Positions 1,136-23,444 of a stretch of DNA of 25,112 nucleotides are shown here, piece by piece. The stretch lies in IMG/VR virus record IMGVR_UViG_2703718778_000012; one strand, written 5' to 3'. Origin of the DNA: a virus. Its lineage: Duplodnaviria > Heunggongvirae > Uroviricota > Caudoviricetes. Each line of letters opens with the position of its first letter. Position 1 is the first letter of the stretch. Below the pieces are notes generated by a model. The model was not told the origin of the DNA, made no database searches, and saw only the letters and a list, made by a program, of their open reading frames with translations. The position numbers and the translations under genes are program-made.

Positions 1136-2812
1136 CTAAGCAACATGTAGTTCATCGTTGGCGGAAGTGGCTGCTTTGCGCTCCTGCTCAATAGCTAGAG
1201 ACTCTCTATATTCTTTCGCCTCTGCAAACATTGTCCAGTGGGCGTTGATGTTCATGTCTTCAATAACTGATTTGATTTCTTTTAAATTTACGTTAAAAAA
1301 CTCTTTTCGTGAGTTAATTTTATTGACCTGCTTTTCGTTGAAAACTTTATGCAGATGGTTTTCTAATGATGGTGCATCATCACTATAAATCATCGCATGA
1401 ACATCGAACGAAAAAGGAACACTAGCATCTCCGAGTTCACGAACACGATCAAGTGGTTCAAGGCGGCGTGTCATTCCAATTTTATATACATCTTCGCCAA
1501 ATGAACCAATATTACTAATGATATAGACGTGGCCTGATCTGGTTTGTTGAGCCATAGAAATAGCTCGTTGATTTTTAGCTTCAGCTTCTTCATATTTTAA
1601 CTGTAGTTCAGCTATTTTTTGCTCTAAAGCTAAGCGTTGTTCTTCATTTGCAAGCATAAGTTCTTTCGTTGCTTTATTTATAGCTTGCTGAATAGCTTTT
1701 TCTTCTTTTTCAGCTTCTTTTATCGCTTTTTCATATTCTCTACGAGCTCTTTCCTCTTCACGAAGCTGTTCTTTAATCCTTCTTTGCTCTTCTTTTTCTT
1801 CGAGCATAATTTCATTAACTGCTACACCCCATTTTAGCTCGTTGAGTCTTGCCTGAAGATAGATGTCACTTATTTTTGCGGACCTAAAGGCAGAGCCATT
1901 GTAATTTACTAGTTGAAATGCATCTTTTATTTCTTGGGAAAGTTTTCCAAAATTGTTGTGTTTGACTTTTGATAAAATACTGTCAACTCTTCCATTGAAG
2001 GCATCCAAAACAAAGTTTATGGCAGTATTACGCCTGTTTTGCTCAACATAATCACACGAAGCAGCTTTATTAGTTTTTATTAATGATTTGGTTAACTCTC
2101 TGGCTTTTTGTAATTCCTTGCCTGCATCTGTAAATTCATAATTTTCTGCCAGCTCATCAAGTACACTACGGTTAGGGATGATCCATTCATCACCATAACC
2201 TTCAATTTTATTTTTCATTGATTTTGCAACTGCTTCATATTTTTCTGCAAACTCTTTAGCTTCATATGCTGAACCAGCAATCTCCTTTGCTCTTTCTTCT
2301 GCATCAGAAATAATTTTTACTGCATTGTCATTAGCATTTGAGATTAGCACATTTGCTTTATTATTAGCATTATCAAGACGTTCTTTGGCTTTCAGGCGTG
2401 CATCGCGAGCGTCTTTGGTGATTGCTATAGCTTCGCTATTAGCGTTGCTTATTGTCATCTGAGCTTGATAATTTGCTTCGTTTACTGTTTTAGCCGCCTT
2501 AATTTGGGCTTCATCTATTTTTTGCTTGGCTATTGAGTCCGCATTTTTTATCTTATTCTCTGCATCCATTACTGCGCTGTGCAATTCTTCGTATTGCCAC
2601 AATGGTGCTGCTCGCCCTTCAAGCTCTGATAATTCTCGTACGGTCTGTGCTAGTTTTTCTTGATTTTCAATCAGTTGGTTGGAAAGGGCTATGTTGTTAG
2701 CTGTCAGGTTATCTATAGCCGCTTTGTGTTTTTTACTTTGTTTAAATAATATTACAGCTAGAACAGGGGCGAGAAATGCTAATAAGAGTATAACGATGGC
2801 AAATGAATTCAT
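1136..2812 (-). CDS. Membrane-anchored coiled-coil protein with C-terminal GIY-YIG-like (T5orf172/DUF4041-type) nuclease domain
   Basis: 558-aa ORF. N-terminal hydrophobic helix (FAIVILLLAFLAPVLAVILF), about 350 aa of K/E/A-rich heptad-like sequence, then C-terminal GHVYIISNIGSFGEDVYKIGMTRR...E...FFNV, which fits a GIY-x(10-12)-YIG core with following conserved R/E/N. Strongly AT-rich compared with flanking int and cI. AAGGA Shine-Dalgarno 7 nt before the ATG; only 20 nt downstream of the cI stop. Confidence 0.65.
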   Translation of the reverse strand: MNSFAIVILLLAFLAPVLAVILFKQSKKHKAAIDNLTANNIALSNQLIENQEKLAQTVRELSELEGRAAPLWQYEELHSAVMDAENKIKNADSIAKQKIDEAQIKAAKTVNEANYQAQMTISNANSEAIAITKDARDARLKAKERLDNANNKANVLISNANDNAVKIISDAEERAKEIAGSAYEAKEFAEKYEAVAKSMKNKIEGYGDEWIIPNRSVLDELAENYEFTDAGKELQKARELTKSLIKTNKAASCDYVEQNRRNTAINFVLDAFNGRVDSILSKVKHNNFGKLSQEIKDAFQLVNYNGSAFRSAKISDIYLQARLNELKWGVAVNEIMLEEKEEQRRIKEQLREEERARREYEKAIKEAEKEEKAIQQAINKATKELMLANEEQRLALEQKIAELQLKYEEAEAKNQRAISMAQQTRSGHVYIISNIGSFGEDVYKIGMTRRLEPLDRVRELGDASVPFSFDVHAMIYSDDAPSLENHLHKVFNEKQVNKINSRKEFFNVNLKEIKSVIEDMNINAHWTMFAEAKEYRESLAIEQERKAATSANDELHVA

Positions 2813-2832
2813 TTTAAAATCCTTTTACTATA

Positions 2833-3429
2833 TTAATTCGAGACTATTGTACTTCTTATACAAGCAACCACTTCAATATCAGAAAATGCACATTCAAAGC
2901 TATTCTCTGCTGTTGTAATTTTAATCATTCCTTTAGGAAGCCTTGTGATTTTTCGAATGGAATAGGTTCCGTCGATATTGATTAACCAGTTTCCATCAAG
3001 TACTTCAGAAAATTTTTGATCACAAATGTATGTGACGAGTCCATCCTGAACAACAATTGGTGATGAAAGGTTTGCAGGAAGAAATGATGAATCGAAGACA
3101 TATGAACCGTCTTCAATCATTTTGCCTGCGGCAAGGCGAAACTTAACAAGCTCTTCTGTAGCTGCTGTCAGCGAGCTTTGCTTAAGGCCTTGTCCGGTAG
3201 TTAACCATTTGAGGGAGGTTCCTGTTTCAAGAGCACATTGGATTATCCAGTCAGCAGGAAATGTATCCCGCAAATACCTGTTCGCTAGTGTGCTTTTTGA
3301 TACTTCCAAGTGATCAGCTAAAGCCTGTCGTGTCGTAAAGCCATAGGCTTCGACTAATCGCTCAATCGCAGCCTTACCACCTTTATTGGGATTTATTTTG
3401 ATCTCACTTGGGTACTTTGATGTTGACAT
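2833..3429 (-). CDS. cI: CI-type immunity repressor (phage 186 CI-like)
   Basis: 198 aa (186 CI is about 192 aa). N-terminal segment AYGF..RQALADHLEVSKSTLANRYLR......CALETGTSLKWLTTGQG resembles a 186 CI-type DNA-binding domain. Position between int and a divergent apl/cII operon matches P2/186 synteny. Confidence 0.75.
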   Translation of the reverse strand: MSTSKYPSEIKINPNKGGKAAIERLVEAYGFTTRQALADHLEVSKSTLANRYLRDTFPADWIIQCALETGTSLKWLTTGQGLKQSSLTAATEELVKFRLAAGKMIEDGSYVFDSSFLPANLSSPIVVQDGLVTYICDQKFSEVLDGNWLINIDGTYSIRKITRLPKGMIKITTAENSFECAFSDIEVVACIRSTIVSN

Positions 3430-3458
3430 ATCTCTTTTGCGATCCTAGTATCAGTTTT

Positions 3459-3474
3459 GTACCCAATTGGGTAC
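3459..3474. promoter_or_regulatory. Perfect 16-bp palindrome in the cI/apl divergent control region; candidate repressor operator
   Basis: GTACCCAATTGGGTAC is its own reverse complement. The half-site TTGGGTAC recurs at 3408-3415 inside the start of cI. A TTGACA-like hexamer lies nearby at about 3422-3427. Confidence 0.4.
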
Positions 3475-3524
3475 TTGTCACGATTACTACAGGCTCACCA
3501 CAAGCCAATAGGAGATGTTGCATC

Positions 3525-3746
3525 ATGACCCCTAACATTTCAATAACTCTGAATACGCCACACGTCACAATCGAGCGTTATAGCGAACTTACTGGTCTTT
3601 CAATCGACACAATCAACGATATGTTGGCGGATGGTCGCATTCCTCGGCATCGTCTTCGTAAAGACAAGAAAAGAGAAAAGGTAATGATCAACCTTGCTGC
3701 TCTTACCGTTGATGCACTTACTGATTGCAATGTTGTATTCAACTAG
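3525..3746 (+). CDS. apl: Apl/Cox-like excisionase and transcriptional regulator
   Basis: 73-aa basic protein ([36 protein letters not shown]) consistent with a small HTH protein. GGAG lies 10 nt upstream of the ATG. First gene of the rightward early operon, directly before cII, as in 186. The ORF track extends it upstream to 3408, which I discount. Confidence 0.6.
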
Positions 3747-3778
3747 TTCCATTTTGGGATACATCAGAGGTGTCGACC

Positions 3779-4288
3779 ATGTTTGATTACCAAGTTTCCA
3801 AACATCCACATTTTGATGAAGCCTGTCGTGCATTCGCACTGCGCCACAATCTGGTGCAACTGGCAGAACGTGCGGGCATGAATGTGCAGATTCTGCGGAA
3901 CAAGCTGAACCCAGCTCAACCTCATTTATTAACCGCACCAGAAATCTGGCTGCTTACCGATCTGACTGAAGATTCAACGTTGGTAGATGGTTTTCTGGCA
4001 CAGATTCATTGTCTGCCATGTGTACCGATTAATGAGGTAGCAAAAGAGAAACTGCCGCATTACGTCATGAGCGCAACTGCAGAGATCGGGCGTGTTGCAG
4101 CAGGTGCGGTATCTGGTGATGTAAAAACTAGTGCCGGTCGTCGTGATGCTATCAGCAGCATTAACTCTGTAACACGACTGATGGCGCTGGCTGCTGTTTC
4201 ATTGCAAGCCCGTTTACAGGCTAATCCTGCGATGGCGAGTGCAGTTGATACCATGACTGGCCTTGGTGCTTCATTCGGTTTGCTGTGA
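3779..4288 (+). CDS. cII: CII-like lysogeny establishment activator (phage 186 CII family)
   Basis: 169 aa from the ATG at 3779 (186 CII is 169 aa). Sequence [20 protein letters not shown]...[16 protein letters not shown]...ASFGLL matches my recollection of 186 CII closely. CAGAGG Shine-Dalgarno upstream. Confidence 0.85.
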
Positions 4289-4295
4289 GGTGTTT

Positions 4296-4592
4296 ATGCT
4301 GACGAAAGAACCATCATTTGCATCGCTGCTGGTAAAACAAAGCCCGGCAATGCACTACGGTCACGGCTGGATCACGGGTGAGGATGGAAAACGCTGGCAT
4401 CCATGTCATTCACAAGATGAATTGCTGTCTGAATTGACCACGAGGAAACGGAGAAAGTCCAAATGTATGCGGCAGAAAGTGAAGTGGTTTATCAGTTTCG
4501 TTACAGAGGGGAGAGTTATTCAGTACCTGAAGATGATTTGCTCTGTTGCTATCCGTCATTGTCGGGCGATGGCAGTTACTTTTTCACGTTAA
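4296..4592 (+). CDS. Early-operon hypothetical protein (position of 186 fil)
   Basis: ATG at 4296 with GAGG upstream. The N-terminal about 55 aa (MLTKEPSFASLLVKQSPAMHYGHGWITGEDGKRWHPCHSQ...) look protein-like. The 3' third of the frame is W/C/M-rich and overlaps the next ORF, so the true stop is uncertain. Confidence 0.45.
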   Translation: MLTKEPSFASLLVKQSPAMHYGHGWITGEDGKRWHPCHSQDELLSELTTRKRRKSKCMRQKVKWFISFVTEGRVIQYLKMICSVAIRHCRAMAVTFSR

Positions 4593-5352: not shown

Positions 5353-5579
5353 TGGCTGATGCAATGGATCTCGTACAGCAGCGCGTTGAAGAAGAACGCC
5401 AGCGCCATATCCGTGCAGCCCGTGCCAAATCACCGGGCGTGTCACGCGTACTTTGCATTGAATGTGAAGCGCCAATTCCGCCAGCACGACGCCGCGCCAT
5501 TCCGGGAGTGCAGCTTTGCATTACCTGTCAGGAAATCGCAGAACTGAAAGGCAAACATTACAACGGAGGTGCTGTATGA
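5352..5579 (+). CDS. TraR/DksA-family C4 zinc-finger protein
   Basis: 75 aa with CIECEAPIP-x(13)-CITCQE (Cys-x2-Cys ... Cys-x2-Cys) near the C-terminus, the arrangement of TraR-like proteins common in P2-like prophages. This is not the Ogr/B type of finger. Confidence 0.7.
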   Translation: MADAMDLVQQRVEEERQRHIRAARAKSPGVSRVLCIECEAPIPPARRRAIPGVQLCITCQEIAELKGKHYNGGAV

Positions 5580-6433
5580 GCACTATCCTGAAATGGGCGG
5601 GAAATAAAACCGCCATTATGCCAGAACTGAAAAAATACCTTCCTGCTGGCCCGCGACTGGTTGAACCTTTCGCGGGTTCCTGTGCTGTGATGATGGAAAC
5701 GGATTATCCCAGCTATCTGGTTGCGGATATTAATCCTGATTTAATCAACCTCTATAAAAAGGTTGCCGCTGATTGTGAATCGTTTATATCTCGCGCCAGA
5801 GTTTTATTTGAGATCGCAAACAGGGAGGTGGCTTATTACAACATAAGGCAGGAGTTTAACTGCTCAACAGAAATTACTGATTTCATGAAAGCGGTATATT
5901 TCCTGTATCTCAATCGTCACGGTTACCGTGGTTTATGTCGCTATAACAAGAGCGGGCATTTCAACATTCCCTACGGTAATTATAAAAATCCGTATTTCCC
6001 TGAAAAAGAAATTCGCGTATTTGCAGAAAAAGCCCAGCGGGCAACGTTTATCTGCGCCAGCTTTGATGAAACGCTGGCGATGTTGAAGGCGGGGGATGTG
6101 GTGTATTGCGATCCGCCGTATGACGGTACGTTTTCCGGCTATCACACTGACGGTTTCACTGAAGATGACCAGTATCACCTTGCGTCCGTTCTTGAACATC
6201 GGTCATCAGAAGGACATCCGGTCATTGTTTCTAACAGTGATACATCCCTGATCCGTTCGCTGTATCGCAATTTTACTCACCACTATATCAAGGTAAAACG
6301 CAGCATCGGTGTGGCAGCTGGCGAGGGTAAATCAGCAACAGAAATCATTGCTGTTTCCGGGCCGCGCTGCTGGGTGGGATTTGATTATTCGCGTGGCGTG
6401 GATAGTTCTGCCGTGTACGGAGTACGTGCATGA
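5576..6433 (+). CDS. dam: DNA adenine methyltransferase (Dam family, orphan)
   Basis: 285 aa. N-terminal ILKWAGNK...EPFAGSCAV (AdoMet-binding motif I) and CDPPYDG (motif IV, DPPY) are diagnostic of N6-adenine methyltransferases. Start overlaps the upstream stop (ATGA). No restriction partner is adjacent. Confidence 0.85.
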
Positions 6434-8997: not shown

Positions 8998-9186
8998 ATG
9001 CAGGACTATTTTTTGGAGTCTTTGAAGCTCCAGCGCATTGATTTTTTTCTTAAGCTTGTAGCGGCTAGTGAGTGTAGTGATGAAGAGAAGGGGCTGGCTT
9101 TGCAGTGGGTTTCTGAACTAACAGATGAACTCATGGCAAAAATCAGAACCCACGAATACAACCGCTCAATGGATGTCATCAGTTGA
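8998..9186 (+). CDS. Small SOS-induced protein (possible Tum-like antirepressor N-terminal part)
   Basis: 62 aa from the ATG at 8998, preceded by a strong GGAGGA Shine-Dalgarno. The ORF track's upstream extension to 8896 would read through the LexA box, so I discount it. Confidence 0.5.
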   Translation: MQDYFLESLKLQRIDFFLKLVAASECSDEEKGLALQWVSELTDELMAKIRTHEYNRSMDVIS

Positions 9187-9196
9187 GGTGACTTTT

Positions 9197-9430
9197 ATGC
9201 GCATTGAAATAATGATCGATAAAGAGCAGAAGATTAGCCAGTCTATCCTGGATGCCCTTGAATCCGAGCTTTACCGCAATCTGCGCCCCCTGTATCCAAA
9301 AACGGTAATTCGTATCCGCAAAGGTAGCTCTAACGGTGTGGAACTGACCGGACTGCAACTGGACGAAGAAAGAAAACAAGTGATGAAAATTATGCAGAAG
9401 GTGTGGGAAGACGACAGCTGGCTGCATTAG
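9197..9430 (+). CDS. DinI-family protein
   Basis: 77 aa. MRIEIMIDK...LDALESELYRNLRPLYP...VIRIRKGSSNGVELTG...KIMQKVWEDDSW parallels E. coli DinI (MRIEVTIAK...) in length and pattern. Confidence 0.7.
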   Translation: MRIEIMIDKEQKISQSILDALESELYRNLRPLYPKTVIRIRKGSSNGVELTGLQLDEERKQVMKIMQKVWEDDSWLH

Positions 9431-9558
9431 AGAACGTTGCGGATGATAAAACTAGCTTTTACCATCTGCAAGGCTGAACAACGATTGTAGCGAGGTGTTA
9501 GGTGGTTCAAAAGTAAAGCGGTTATTTTGCCCGTAAAAGTGAACCACCTGTATCTTGA

Positions 9559-10299
9559 TCAGTTTTCTTTGAATTTTTCACTTAATCGTTTCGTCAATAC
9601 TTCGACAGATTCTTTGCGACCGGAGAACAAGTCATTGACGACGTACTCCATAATCTCAAAAGCATCCTCAATGTCTTTGACTTTTACTTCATCGTAGGTA
9701 TGGCTTCCGGCATTTCCTAAAAATTTAATTGCCATAAGAGGTCTTGAAAACGATCCGTATAATTCAGGTAGCATCCCTAAACGGTGGTGTAGAGTTATGC
9801 GTTTGCCATTATCATTACGTTCAGCTACATCCATAGCGGTTAGCATTCTTTCAACTGAAATTCGAATTAGGTTTGCTGCTGCGCCAGGCTGTATTAGGAA
9901 AATGGAAAATGAGGCTTCAAGCGGTTCGGTAATTTCTTCTGGGCATTTTTCAGGTATTTCGAAAGGATGCAGTGATGGGTAAAAGGTGAAAGGTCTGTGC
10001 CATTGATAGTACTCAATATCATTTCTTTCTTCATCCCAACCTTGTTCCCATCCACTCTTACCAGTACAGGCCACAACTTCACCACATTGCATTCTTGAAC
10101 AGCGGGCCATGCAACTGAAAATAGATGAATCCATTTCTGGTTCAAACCAATCTTCACTGCGGAATTTTCGGGTATCATGTGTGTCATACGAGACGAAACT
10201 TTCTTTAATGATCTGTAGGGTTTTCTGATTGCAGTTAGGGCAGGGCCACTCAACCTGCATATCGTGGAAAAACGCACCAGAGAGCTTGTGCACAGTCAT
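9559..10299 (-). CDS. Hypothetical protein with N-terminal Cys-rich (zinc-ribbon-like) region and C-terminal alpha-helical domain (possibly DUF4145-like)
   Basis: 246-aa ORF, AT-rich relative to backbone. CPNCNQ ... CMARCSRMQCGEVVAC suggests a metal-binding module. The C-terminal half (AAANLIRISVERML...FLGNAGSH) is helical; the DUF4145 assignment is from memory only. Transcribed divergently from the HNH operon. Confidence 0.65.
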   Translation of the reverse strand: MTVHKLSGAFFHDMQVEWPCPNCNQKTLQIIKESFVSYDTHDTRKFRSEDWFEPEMDSSIFSCMARCSRMQCGEVVACTGKSGWEQGWDEERNDIEYYQWHRPFTFYPSLHPFEIPEKCPEEITEPLEASFSIFLIQPGAAANLIRISVERMLTAMDVAERNDNGKRITLHHRLGMLPELYGSFSRPLMAIKFLGNAGSHTYDEVKVKDIEDAFEIMEYVVNDLFSGRKESVEVLTKRLSEKFKEN

Positions 10300-10445
10300 T
10301 CTTTGTGTTCCTCATTTTTATGATTGGTAGGGATTGTATCTTCATACACGATTACAGTTGCATTAAAGATAAGCCATAGCAAGCTACTGGAAAAGAGACG
10401 AAACAGTTGGGCATATCAGATGTTTTTTCTTAAGGTAAGTTGTTG

Positions 10446-10546
10446 TGCATGCCTATACTGCATGAGATTGCATGATCGTTTGAGGATCGTTATTGCTAAG
10501 GCCCACCAGAACTGGCGGGCTTTTGCGTAGAGCATGCAGGTGCATG
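10446..10546. repeat. Cluster of five GCATG motifs, including the direct repeat TGCATGA-N3-TGCATGA
   Basis: TGCATG at 10446, 10459 and 10469; GCATGC at 10532; TGCATG at 10541. Lies between the 246-aa gene start and the cos-like sequence. Confidence 0.35.
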
Positions 10547-10569
10547 AAAACCACTACATAAAGCGGGCA

Positions 10570-10600
10570 GGCGTGGCGGGGATACGAGCGCGCGCTCACC
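10570..10600. other. cos: Candidate cos site (cohesive-end region)
   Basis: GGCGTGGCGGGGATACGAGCGCGCGCTCACC closely resembles the P2/186 cohesive-end region as I remember it (P2 GGCGAGGCGGGGAAAGCAC followed by TGCGCGCTGAC). Includes a perfect palindrome GAGCGCGCGCTC. This is a GC-rich island within AT-rich flanks. Confidence 0.5.
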
Positions 10601-10676
10601 ACAATTAGCAAGCTTGCTTATAGGGTTGTTCAGTAATAAATTAACATCCTAATTTCTATACTTTTAAGGTTAGTTC

Positions 10677-11372
10677 ATGGCTTGCAGTAGGGGAAAAGCT
10701 TCTCCAAACGCTAATACAGTTAGACGGCTTTTTGCCAGCTCAGGTGGCTTTTGCCAAAATCCACAATGCTTGCAACCTTTGTTTGTTGATGCTGGCGACA
10801 AAAATATAACAATTGGAGAACTTGCTCACATTTTTAGTGCCATTGATAATGGACCTAGAACCAATGCTGATCTAACTGATGAGCAGAGAGGTCATTTTGA
10901 CAACATTATTCTTCTATGTGCTAATTGCCATACGACAATTGATAAGGCAGAGGAACATTTTACTGATGAAATTATCCGTTCTTGGAAAAACGGCCATATT
11001 GATAAAATAAATGCAACCTTTGGTGTTAAAACATATGACAATCGAGAATCTGTTAGACAGGAGTTAGAAAAATACTTCAGAGAAAACAATACCATTTTTG
11101 TAACATATGGACCAACCCAAGAGAACAGCGTTGACCCTGAAAATCCAAATGCAGAAGTATGGTTAAGAAAAGTACAATCTCATATCTTACCCAACAATAG
11201 AAAAGTACAGCGACTGGTTGAACAAAACTATCACCTCATGAGTGAAGATGAGAAGAATGTTTTTTCAAAGCTTTGTGTTCATATAGATGACTTTGAATCA
11301 AAACATTTGGGCTTAACCGATGCTAATGGTAGTAGGTTTCCAGAAGCTGCATCTGAACTATTTATAGGATGA
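10677..11372 (+). CDS. HNH-family endonuclease
   Basis: 231 aa. GGFCQNPQC ... ELAHIFSAIDNGP ... DNIILLCANCHTTIDK contains the His / Asn / Cys-x2-Cys-His elements of an HNH beta-beta-alpha-metal fold. AT-rich. First gene of a three-gene operon with overlapping stop/start codons. Confidence 0.75.
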   Translation: MACSRGKASPNANTVRRLFASSGGFCQNPQCLQPLFVDAGDKNITIGELAHIFSAIDNGPRTNADLTDEQRGHFDNIILLCANCHTTIDKAEEHFTDEIIRSWKNGHIDKINATFGVKTYDNRESVRQELEKYFRENNTIFVTYGPTQENSVDPENPNAEVWLRKVQSHILPNNRKVQRLVEQNYHLMSEDEKNVFSKLCVHIDDFESKHLGLTDANGSRFPEAASELFIG

Positions 11373-12028
11373 ATCCAATGAGCATAAATGCGAGTGAAGG
11401 CTATATTTCATGGATGGCAGGAAAATTGCAAGAAAATAAATGTGTCGAAAATATAGAGGTGATAGGTGATGGTACTTTAGTGATTAATACTACACAGGGT
11501 GACACCTATTTGATCGGGGCAATCAATACTGGCCGGATAACATGTCCTGAGATAAATGAATACCTAGACAATAAAAAAATTGATTTTCTATCAGTCAAGG
11601 GAGGTGTTGAATTTATCTCTGGTGATGCAATGAGATTACTAGAACAAAAGAAAATAGGAGTGGGTTCATTTGGGCATATTGCATCTTCTTTAAGAGCTAA
11701 TAATCCGCTTGAGCATCTTGATAAAGAGCATTTGTTTATAAATAGAGTGTTCAATCAACATTCACATGTAAGCTCTGTAGAGCGAGAAACCAACAAAAAA
11801 TATAGACTTAAAAGACGTGGCTTGGCGGACTTAGTTATTATCGCTGCGAATGATTATGATATGACAGCGGGTTCTGTAAGAGATGCGATAGGGTTGCATG
11901 GCAATTGTGATGTTGTTTTTTCCTCCAATCCTAATGGACGATTGACGACTCAGGCAAAAGAGGCTGCTCAAAGTATCGGGGTGGAGCTTTACAAGTTGGG
12001 TGATTTATTACGAAGAATTTCACGGTAG
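11369..12028 (+). CDS. Hypothetical protein (middle gene of HNH/NTase operon)
   Basis: 219-aa ORF whose start overlaps the HNH stop (ATGA). No motif I can assign with confidence; contains RVFNQH (R-x4-H), which is weakly reminiscent of a HEPN motif. Confidence 0.65.
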   Translation: MNPMSINASEGYISWMAGKLQENKCVENIEVIGDGTLVINTTQGDTYLIGAINTGRITCPEINEYLDNKKIDFLSVKGGVEFISGDAMRLLEQKKIGVGSFGHIASSLRANNPLEHLDKEHLFINRVFNQHSHVSSVERETNKKYRLKRRGLADLVIIAANDYDMTAGSVRDAIGLHGNCDVVFSSNPNGRLTTQAKEAAQSIGVELYKLGDLLRRISR

Positions 12029-12397: not shown

Positions 12398-13426
12398 TTA
12401 CAAGGAGTAATCTTGGAATTTTATTACGTCATCATGTAGCCAATTGTTCACCTCTCTAATTCGTTGTTGAAGAGGCTTTAATTCATTACGTACAAAAACC
12501 GTGGATGCCTTCTCCACATCCCCAAACCCGCCAACATTATTCGGCATGATACCCATCATTTGCGGAGGCACGCGGTGTGCCGCCATCATGTCATCCCGGC
12601 TCACGTTCTTGATGTTCAGAAATTCATCCTTTGCCGCGACTTCTGACAACGGGATAATCTGAAGACCATCCTTTTTGCCGTTAGGTGAGTACATAAACAG
12701 GTTGCGGAAGTTGCCTGGACCTTTGGCGCTTTTCATTGCGTTGCGGAGGTTGTTCACATCCTCCTGGTTCTGCGCAGCATCGGTCATGTACATGATGAAG
12801 CCAGCATGACTGCCGTTAATGTAATACTTTCGGCGGAACAGCGTGGCGGACTCGTTGAGCAGGGCTGACGGAATGGCAGAAAGATAACCGGGCAGGCCGT
12901 AGATCTCCTGGTTGATGTCCGGTTCCATCAGATGAAAGATGCTGCCTTTCGTGAACTGATATGGCTGCGTGGTCATACCGTATTGCACAAACCAGTAGGT
13001 ATCCAGGTCTAACCCGCGTCGGGTGTATTTTGCCAGGGCAGGTTCAAGGGCGATAACTTCACCGAAGCGGTTCGTGCGTTTCTCCAGGTAGGCGTTACCA
13101 AATACCAGATAGTCCTGCACAAAACGCGAAAAAGCCTGCTGGCTGAGCAGCGGGTGAGGGATGTAGGTGCTGGTCAGAATGTTGCACTTTACTGCAATCG
13201 GGGAACTATGATGCACGGCAGCGCGGAAGGTGCGCGCCAGTCCGTCAAAGCTGACGGGCGGCTCATACCAGCGGTCCATCTGTACGCATTCCACATAATC
13301 CAGCAGTTCTCGGCGGTCCAGAACAGGAACGGGATCGCCGAAGCTGAATGCTTCGGCTGTAGTTTGACTTTTAAGCTGGATCTGTTTCGTCGCCGCAGTG
13401 CGGTTCTTCTTACTCTTTCCCATCAA
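12398..13426 (-). CDS. Q: Portal protein (P2 gpQ family)
   Basis: 342 aa. Extended similarity to my recollection of P2 gpQ (GDPVPVLDRREL..., YLVFGNAYLE..., LNESATLFRRKYY.NG.HAG.IMY.TDA, IPLSEVAAKD.F.NIK, FVRNEL.PLQ.RIRE.N.WL). Start overlaps the P stop. Confidence 0.9.
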   Translation of the reverse strand: MMGKSKKNRTAATKQIQLKSQTTAEAFSFGDPVPVLDRRELLDYVECVQMDRWYEPPVSFDGLARTFRAAVHHSSPIAVKCNILTSTYIPHPLLSQQAFSRFVQDYLVFGNAYLEKRTNRFGEVIALEPALAKYTRRGLDLDTYWFVQYGMTTQPYQFTKGSIFHLMEPDINQEIYGLPGYLSAIPSALLNESATLFRRKYYINGSHAGFIMYMTDAAQNQEDVNNLRNAMKSAKGPGNFRNLFMYSPNGKKDGLQIIPLSEVAAKDEFLNIKNVSRDDMMAAHRVPPQMMGIMPNNVGGFGDVEKASTVFVRNELKPLQQRIREVNNWLHDDVIKFQDYSL

Positions 13427-20324: not shown

Positions 20325-20763
20325 ACTGCAGAAGGTGGACGACTGGCTGAGTGCCTTGCTGGCGAATCTGGAACCAGCCACGAGAAGCCGCATGATGCGC
20401 CAGCTGGCGCAGGAACTGCGCCGGACACAGCAGCAGAATATCAGGATGCAGCGCAATCCAGATGGCAGCAGTTATGAACCGCGCAGGGTAACAGCACGTA
20501 GCAAGAAGGGGCGCATCAAACGTCAGATGTTTGCAAAGCTGCGCACCACCAAATACCTGAAAACCGCCGCCAGCGCCGACTCTGCCTGCGTACAGTTTGA
20601 AAGTAAGGTGCAGCGCATTGCCCGCGTTCACCATTATGGCCTGCGCGATCGCGTCAGCCGCAAAGGACCGGAAGTGCGTTACGCAGAGCGTCGTTTGTTG
20701 GGTCTTAATGGTGAGTCTTACGTTCTAACTCTTGATATATTGAATAGATTCCTTCTGTCTTGA
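20317..20763 (+). CDS. S: Tail completion protein S (P2 gpS family)
   Basis: 148 aa. ...LAQELRRTQQQNIRMQRNPDGSSYEPRRVTARSKKGRIKRQMF...VQRIARVHHYGLRD.VSR.GPEVRY parallels P2 gpS. GTG start overlaps the R stop. The last roughly 18 codons are AT-rich and overlap the convergent cargo gene. Confidence 0.85.
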   Translation: MAELQKVDDWLSALLANLEPATRSRMMRQLAQELRRTQQQNIRMQRNPDGSSYEPRRVTARSKKGRIKRQMFAKLRTTKYLKTAASADSACVQFESKVQRIARVHHYGLRDRVSRKGPEVRYAERRLLGLNGESYVLTLDILNRFLLS

Positions 20764-22549: not shown

Positions 22550-23444
22550 CCTTTCGCAGTTGCCTGCGCCGCAGATTGTGGATGTGCCGGACTTTGAGAC
22601 GCTGCTTTCCGAACGCAAGGCCGAATTTGTGGCGCTTCATCCGAAAGATGAGCAGGAAGCAGTGATCCGCACGCTGGAACTGGAATCTGAACCCGTCACC
22701 AAATTGTTGCAGGAGAACGCTTACCGTGAATTGCTTCTACGCCAGCGCATTAACGAAGCCGCGCAGGCGGTGATGGTGGCTTACGCGATGGGCGGAGACC
22801 TTGACCAAATTGCTGCCAACTACAACGTGAAACGCCTGACGGTGACACCTGCTGATGATGACGCTGTACCGCCTGTTGCGGCTGTGATGGAAAGTGATGA
22901 AGCGTTACGCCTGCGTGTGCCTGCAGCCTTTGAAGGACTTTCAGTTGCGGGGCCAACTGCAGCTTATGAATTTCATGCCCGAAGCGCCGACGGTCGGGTG
23001 GCGGATGCCAGTGCAACCAGCCCAGCACCTGCAGAGGTGGTGCTGACTGTCCTTAGCCGCGAAGGCGATGGAACTGCAGAAAAGGACCTGCTGGACGTGG
23101 TGGAAAAAGCTCTGAACAGTGAGAACGTCCGCCCGGTGGCTGACCGTCTTACGGTTCGCAGCGCAGAAATCATCCCGTATCGCGTGGAAGCCACCATTTT
23201 TCTCTATCCGGGACCGGAAGCAGAGCCGGTAATGGCAGCGGCAAAAGCCAGCCTGCAGAAGTACATCGCCAGTCAGACGCGTCTTGGTCGGGATATTCGC
23301 CGTAGCGCCATCTTTGCCGCCCTGCATGTTGAGGGAGTGCAGCGTGTGGAGCTGGCTTCACCGCTGGCGGATGTGGTCCTGAACAAAACACAGGCGGCAT
23401 CATGTACGCAGTGGAGCGTAACCAACGGAGGAACGGATGAATAG
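22536..23444 (+). CDS. J: Baseplate protein J (P2 gpJ family)
   Basis: 302 aa from the ATG at 22536, identical in length to P2 gpJ; synteny. The track ORF begins 39 nt upstream in the same frame. Confidence 0.9.
   Translation: MAVIDLSQLPAPQIVDVPDFETLLSERKAEFVALHPKDEQEAVIRTLELESEPVTKLLQENAYRELLLRQRINEAAQAVMVAYAMGGDLDQIAANYNVKRLTVTPADDDAVPPVAAVMESDEALRLRVPAAFEGLSVAGPTAAYEFHARSADGRVADASATSPAPAEVVLTVLSREGDGTAEKDLLDVVEKALNSENVRPVADRLTVRSAEIIPYRVEATIFLYPGPEAEPVMAAAKASLQKYIASQTRLGRDIRRSAIFAALHVEGVQRVELASPLADVVLNKTQAASCTQWSVTNGGTDE

Follow-up and report, generated by a model that had tools for sequence, protein, structure and literature searches.

The control region between cI and apl in the 25,112-nt stretch of viral DNA analysed here (the window) holds a perfect 16-bp palindrome at the start of the early lytic promoter pR and a degenerate copy of it 59 bp away. 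We consider it about 75% probable that the two are a pair of 186-type CI operators bracketing pR. As a predicted CI operator the palindrome, O-right, carries that same confidence, and the degenerate copy, O-left, is also a probable site, though a less secure one. Judged from its sequence, the element is most likely an ordinary predicted case of a well-known type of phage switch.

The window begins at an integrase gene and continues through a set of switch genes (Table 1). The 198-aa cI product contains both domains of 186 CI (Pfam Phage_CI_repr, 8e-32; Phage_CI_C, 3.5e-27), shares 32% identity with it and matches the 186 CI crystal structure in the PDB (2FJR, 6.7e-27; 2FKD, 2e-8). The 73-aa protein falls in PHROG 575, ‘Cox-like excisionase and repressor’ (1e-31). 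These CI domain and structure matches, the Cox-like 73-aa protein and the Phage_CP76 cII identify the locus as a 186-type lysis–lysogeny switch. The 558-aa gene encodes the anti-phage defence protein PD-Lambda-1 (PADLOC, 3.6e-120; Pfam DUF4041 and T5orf172/MUG113) and is probably co-transcribed with cI as part of the lysogenic operon. A 14-bp palindrome, AAATGAATTCATTT (2801-2814), overlaps its start codon. Over positions 2800-4300 the window is 100% identical to Escherichia phage vB_EcoM-813R9 (ON470620, Peduoviridae). We dropped the idea that the window is this truncated prophage record, as it covers only 85% of the whole window at 96.9% identity. The name of this phage reportedly occurs once, in a bioRxiv preprint about prophages from carbapenemase-producing E. 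coli. The cargo region at 9125-12028 differs from ON470620.

Table 1 Coordinates of genes and of observed and predicted control elements in the window.
Feature	Position	Strand	Details
Integrase gene	1-1053	minus	First gene in the window
558-aa gene (PD-Lambda-1)	1136-2812	minus	Between cI and int; 20 bp downstream of cI, same strand
cI	2833-3429	minus	198-aa 186-type immunity repressor; ATG at 3429; recognition helix SKSTLANRY
O-left (predicted left operator)	3400-3415		Degenerate dyad GATCTCACTTGGGTAC; cI codons 5-10; about -59 to -44 of pR
pR (predicted early lytic promoter)	3423-3451	plus	-35 TTGACA 3423-3428; 17-bp spacer; -10 TAGTAT 3446-3451
O-right (predicted right operator)	3459-3474		GTACCCAATTGGGTAC; about +1 to +16 of pR
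Conserved block	3475-3524		Candidate place of Apl operators and pL start; apl ribosome-binding site AGGAG 3510-3514
pL (candidate lysogenic promoter, weak)	3515-3543	minus	TTGAAA 3543-3538; 17 bp; CAACAT 3520-3515
apl/cox	3525-3746	plus	73-aa Cox-like excisionase and repressor; first gene of the pR operon
CII box	3779-3805		ATGTTTG-N13-CAAACAT at the start of cII; for establishment promoter pE
cII	3779-4288	plus	Phage_CP76
fil-like genes, Dam-type methylase, replication gene A	Right of cII	plus side	
Dam-type methylase ORF	5516-6433		
DinI-like gene	9125-9430		Cargo region
DUF4145 protein	9559-10299	minus	Cargo region
HNH-like endonuclease	10677-11372		Cargo region; resembles PADLOC candidate PDC-M68A
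Unknown 219-aa ORF	Within 9125-12028		Cargo region

A promoter scan of positions 3200-3900 returned a single promoter-like match, a strong sigma-70-like sequence with 10 of 12 consensus bases. We take it to be the equivalent of pR, because it is directed towards apl and its -35 element runs into the cI start codon. Its position is conserved across four CI classes. Transcription would start at about 3458-3459, and this predicted position puts the palindrome, which begins 8 bp past the -10 element, at about +1 to +16. The same scan of 3200-3900 yielded no pL. The candidate listed in Table 1 matches the consensus at 8 of 12 positions, under the threshold of the scan, and its offsets from the apl ATG (the -10 ending 5 bp upstream, the -35 starting at +13) equal those of the annotated 186 pL. 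Judged by position only, it would converge on pR, with the start sites roughly 50 bp apart. Other hexamer combinations near 3483-3510 were rejected, having a -10 element without A at position 2 or T at position 6, or the wrong spacing. The face-to-face promoters suggested in the earlier note by analogy with 186 are therefore plausible, with a clear pR and a pL placed by positional inference.

Further right, the CII box has the same two heptamer half-sites as the CII site annotated in 186, with a spacer that differs at five positions, and the box is conserved in all CI classes. Seven phages that differ in their upstream apl codons have no synonymous changes at positions 3684-3760, a stretch made up of the last ~60 bp of apl and the gap before cII. 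This indicates constraint at the DNA or RNA level, which probably comes from the pE promoter and its leader.

The palindrome lies exactly at 3459-3474, with two perfectly matched 8-bp arms, and its half-site TTGGGTAC recurs exactly at 3408-3415, both as first described. The second copy had been assigned to a 96-bp divergent control region; it lies instead within cI, at codons 5-8 (K-Y-P-S), and the true gap between the cI ATG (3429) and the apl ATG (3525) is 95 bp. Exact matches to the 8-mer occur at three places in the 25-kb window, all around the cI-apl switch, and its one-mismatch copies are at chance level (13 seen, 14.4 expected). The expectation is about 0.49 perfect 16-bp palindromes per window, and at least one turns up in 40% of Markov-simulated windows. 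A 16-bp palindrome as such is not rare; this one stands out from chance because it sits at the pR start, is repeated 59 bp away and is backed by the comparison of related loci. Another perfect 16-bp palindrome, TGCGCCAGCTGGCGCA, is present at 20396-20411. A literature search found no paper containing the palindrome sequence in a switch context.

For comparison, we assembled 69 loci of the window’s cI class from seven GTDB genomes (Silvania, Klebsiella michiganensis, Dryocola, Raoultella, Citrobacter, Escherichia sp. and another Enterobacteriaceae), 57 IMG/VR contigs found using the pR core as the search pattern, and E. coli and Klebsiella records. Of 5426 complete E. coli genomes, 165 (~3%) carry the family, which several further enterobacterial genera also harbour. 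The right site is present in all 69 loci, across seven or more enterobacterial genera, as 23 distinct variants with the consensus GTnCCCAwTTGGGkAC. G1, CCC4-6, TTGGG9-13 and C16 are invariant, and T2, A7 and A15 nearly so. Altogether 14 of the 16 positions are invariant or nearly invariant, and free variation is confined to positions 3 and 14, which are dyad partners. Between the -10 element and the dyad (3453-3458), three of six positions are highly polymorphic. Perfect symmetry is found only in the window’s own lineage (10 of 69 loci) and in locus L085, most relatives having one or two arm mismatches. The L085 site, GTTCCCAATTGGGAAC, owes its symmetry to a complementary change at positions 3 and 14. 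The block 3450-3479 as a whole has 11 variable columns, the most of any 30-bp block in the control region and about the level of coding sequence. An apparent covariation between operator position 14 (T/G) and CI residue 53 (L/M) was set aside, since it has exceptions and probably reflects phylogenetic linkage.

At the upstream site, TTGGGTAC forms the right arm of the 16-mer GATCTCACTTGGGTAC. This 16-mer and the palindrome region are taken in by a 22-nt direct repeat (TTTTG...TTGGGTACTT) with a start-to-start spacing of 59 bp. O-left has three mismatches to the operator consensus and in a scan of the window is joint second-best with a chance-level match at 12436-12451, 1.7 such matches being expected per strand. 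Its TTGGGTAC arm is nevertheless kept in every one of the 69 loci. In L085 the N-terminal codons of CI differ, yet the upstream site is a full copy, GTTCCCATTTGGGTAC, which provides the best comparative argument that this may be a real second site. Positions 3385-3429 (45 bp) are almost without synonymous variation. Among the GTDB loci only three columns vary in the 60 bp at 3390-3449, against 10-15 per 30 bp in cI and apl, and this scarcity argues that the first ~15 cI codons are under constraint at the DNA level. The conservation of O-left is confounded with that of the coding sequence, the promoter and the ribosome-binding and translation-initiation region of cI. Two other features occur close by. 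An invariant TTGGGAT at 3386-3392, 22 bp (two helical turns) left of the right arm of O-left, could represent a weak third half-site; the sequence in the place of its left arm departs from the consensus. GATC (Dam) sites are found at 3400-3403, in O-left, and at 3441-3444, in the pR -35/-10 spacer; the family conserves the two sites, and a Dam-type methylase is among the phage’s own genes.

Exchange of modules between related phages indicates to which gene the palindrome belongs. More than 200 E. coli genomes and the Klebsiella 4LV2017-type phages have the window’s DNA from about 3477 rightward, together with another CI and no palindrome. Heteroimmune prophages and phages of this kind encode an identical Apl (WP_000188448) and a CI of 299-312 aa, lack the palindrome and carry TGTGAwkTTT at both equivalent positions. 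Three loci of the window’s CI class (L056, L085 and L090) keep O-left, pR and O-right with a diverged Apl; the DNA right of their dyad differs and is about 10 bp shorter, in L085 by one helical turn within 3475-3540. In both groups the breakpoints coincide with the palindrome’s right edge, homology breaking at about 3477. The sequence of the site is specific to the cI (immunity) class. The palindrome is part of the cI module, and the block 3475-3524 part of the apl module. This latter region has five variable columns in 60 bp (3480-3539) among the GTDB loci, is common to the heteroimmune phages and is replaced when Apl differs; the block 3475-3540 probably holds the Apl operators and pL. A search of 3475-3524 for Apl-type repeats with a 10-11 bp period gave nothing convincing.

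The same comparison bears on the choice between CI and Apl, either of which had been put forward in the earlier note as the binder. An Apl/Cox operator could repress pR, pL or both during lytic development and excision, and the dyad does lie between the predicted pR and apl, in the stretch between promoters that, in P2/186-like switches, houses the seven Apl sites of 186 and the P2 Cox arrays. However, Apl and Cox bind at least three direct repeats 10-11 bp, or one helical turn, apart (PMC7498355). Their arrays consist of 6-9 bp direct repeats at that spacing, bound by cooperative monomers, with a motif that recurs at att. The window has one dyad and one degenerate dyad 59 bp apart, which do not co-segregate with apl: prophages with an identical Apl lack the palindrome, and loci with a diverged Apl retain it. 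No related motif was visible by eye in the attL arm beside int in ON470620. We rejected the Apl reading on repeat geometry and module segregation and regard it as highly improbable. The CI half of the original suggestion gains support from co-segregation with the cI class, the conserved core, the overlap with the pR start and the likeness to 186.

Three further explanations do not involve CI or Apl. That the palindrome arose by chance, its conservation being due to the neighbouring promoter and recent common ancestry, is unlikely, despite the frequency of such palindromes in simulated windows, the lack of conservation of perfect symmetry and the coding-level variability of the block 3450-3479. 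On this account the G..CCC..TTGGG..C core should not be invariant across genera next to highly polymorphic positions at 3453-3458, nor should the variable positions be dyad partners; a second copy at 59 bp, complete in L085, and a coincidence of the element with the exact boundary of the immunity module also argue against it. A hairpin at the 5′ end of the pR transcript, stabilising the early mRNA or modulating its translation, is a little less probable still. The predicted start does place the palindrome at the very 5′ end of the transcript, where GUACCC/AAUU/GGGUAC folds at -9.4 kcal/mol and the GTTCCC...GGGGAC class at -8.7 kcal/mol with a U.G pair at T3/G14. The only variable pair (3/14), however, is unpaired in 13 of the 23 distinct variants. 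No covariation measure rises above shuffled alignments, the covariation score being under the shuffle mean; common variants fold at just -4.7 kcal/mol, like shuffled sequence, and there is no Rfam match. A structured mRNA element would also leave unexplained the second DNA copy, which lies upstream of the promoter and outside the transcript. With no support from covariation, we rejected it.

It is very unlikely that the element is instead bound by some protein of the host or by a further phage regulator, for example an antirepressor partner. The GATC sites in O-left and in the pR spacer hint at further inputs, but the element switches with every change of cI class and at no other time, and its half-site looks like the operator used by the homologous 186 CI. 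Binding by CI remains the reading that we prefer, and the known 186 operators, taken from the GenBank annotation NC_001317, provide the closest standard for it.

In 186, three annotated CI sites at pR (23011-23067) run from the cI ATG and span 56-57 bp. The 17-bp FL and FR sites lie ~300 bp away, the seven Apl sites fall between pR and pL, and pL overlaps the start of apl. The three operators are two helical turns apart, and a CI 14-mer wheel wraps and loops the DNA (PMC3675496). The window resembles this system in its homologous repressor, with an HTH N-terminal domain and a wheel-forming C-terminal domain, in the leftward cI and rightward apl-cII with a CII box of matching half-sites, and in sites that abut the cI start codon and overlap the lytic promoter. 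As in 186, dyad sites overlap pR beside the cI start, although here the promoter and its start site are predictions. The central pR dyad of 186, ATCTCTCAATTGGGAGAT, and the window element both have the core CAATTGGG and the layout TCyC-N4-GrGA.

The two systems differ in anatomy. The 186 dyad lies inside the -35/-10 spacer, flanked by two more operators at two helical turns. The window has only two recognisable sites, outside the core promoter at about -52 and +8. Their centres are 59 bp apart, or ~5.6 helical turns, a spacing at odds with the 63 bp expected from the 21-bp phasing of the 186 wheel. The outer half-site bases are GTn in the window and ATCT in 186, and the 186 operators, unlike the predicted pair in the window, have been footprinted experimentally. 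No arrangement of three adjacent operators two turns apart was found, since only two sites with three or fewer mismatches occur, 59 bp apart, and comparison with the heteroimmune loci revealed no immunity-specific motif in the pR spacer. FL and FR of 186 read ATTCAC-N5-GTGAAT; a consensus scan of the whole window for FL/FR-like distal sites or a third operator gave only chance-level matches, and no immunity-specific distal site was found. A match at the FR position (3746-3761, four mismatches) is equally conserved in heteroimmune phages, and a 9-bp inverted pair, ATGTATCCC (3261-3269) and GGGATACAT (3756-3764), was also rejected as FL/FR. Heteroimmune phages have exactly the same apl-cII gap, which is therefore not specific to CI and is more probably part of pE. 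The comparison with 186 operators called for in the earlier note thus upholds a common CAATTGGG core and layout and does not extend to the three-site and FL/FR anatomy, in which the predicted operator set departs from a full structural homologue of that of 186.

Other well-known switches are more distant. In the convergent switch of P2, the repressor sites O1 and O2 likewise bracket part of the early promoter, but P2 C belongs to a different, 99-aa repressor family and binds non-palindromic direct repeats (PMC2995052, PMC1904268). The lambda OR and OL operators are likewise 16-17 bp dyads, at which HTH repressor dimers bind and cooperate by way of a C-terminal domain. They differ in having back-to-back promoters and three adjacent operators, in the unrelated C-terminal domain of the repressor, and in induction via RecA-mediated cleavage.

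If the two sites are CI operators, each dyad would bind one CI dimer through the HTH N-terminal domains. O-right would then cover the pR start (+1 to +16), with O-left (-59 to -44) just where the RNA polymerase footprint ends upstream. Because one site covers the start and the other borders the footprint, CI occupancy would keep polymerase off pR, and apl, cII and the replication genes would fall silent. The C-terminal oligomerisation domain would probably link the two dimers, with the core promoter clamped or wrapped between them. As in 186, silencing of pR should relieve transcriptional interference on the weak convergent pL and so sustain cI expression.

Each of the three other CI classes has its own motif upstream of the -35 element, in the first cI codons, and its own dyad just past the -10 element. 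Xenorhabdus prophages have GATCTCAATATTGGTAT and GTTCTCGAwATGAGATC, ~61 bp apart, the plasmid-borne prophage CP019275 has CAAACCCC and TGGTTT-N8-AAACCA, and the long-CI class has TGTGA-type motifs. The long CIs (299-312 aa; L003 1519-2460, L007 275-1213, L008 275-1213 and L009 253-1152) contain two tandem Phage_CI_repr HTH domains, and the recognition helix of the second is almost that of the window’s CI (alignment A5). The helix, SKST[L/M]A[N/T]RY, is nearly identical across CI classes whose putative operators differ, a point that weighs against the operator reading. The half-site is TCCCA in the window, TCTCA in Xenorhabdus, TCACA in the double-HTH long-CI class, and both TCTCA and TCCCA in 186, and the half-sites would appear to be variants of TCnCA. 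Within the long cI genes, GTTCTCATTTGGGGAT (L009 844-859) and GGTCTCGATTGGGAAC (L008 845-860) have two and three mismatches, respectively, to the operator consensus. These sites occupy a position homologous to O-left, ~300 bp left of their own pR, and may be relics of domain insertion or FL-like distal sites.

A more specific, and rather doubtful, proposal is that this is a minimal two-operator form of the 186-type switch. In it, pR would be held from both flanks, at about -52 and +8, by a CI oligomer, with no central operator, FL or FR involved, and immunity classes would be split mainly by the middle base of TCnCA and the arm spacing. Such a split, if true, would offer a natural series for heteroimmunity evolving by small operator changes and HTH duplication. 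Unless the two-site clamp geometry is confirmed, the locus adds little conceptually to the 186 paradigm.

The consensus GTnCCCAwTTGGGkAC and its cI are together the likely immunity determinant of a P2/186-like prophage family, and the right edge of the operator marks the junction between exchangeable ‘immunity’ and ‘apl-cII’ modules. The switch probably also drives the PD-Lambda-1 defence gene directly downstream of cI. In practical terms, the repressor and its sites are a candidate orthogonal repressor/operator pair.

Repeats were also seen just beyond the left end of the window, in the attL arm of ON470620 (L001 140-200) between rcdA and the int stop codon. An 18-bp unit, AACAATAAGTTAGGTT(A/G)(A/G), is repeated in tandem with a 19-bp period and followed by GGTGGT-N4-GGTGGT. 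These are likely to be IHF, Int-arm or Apl sites at the attachment region.
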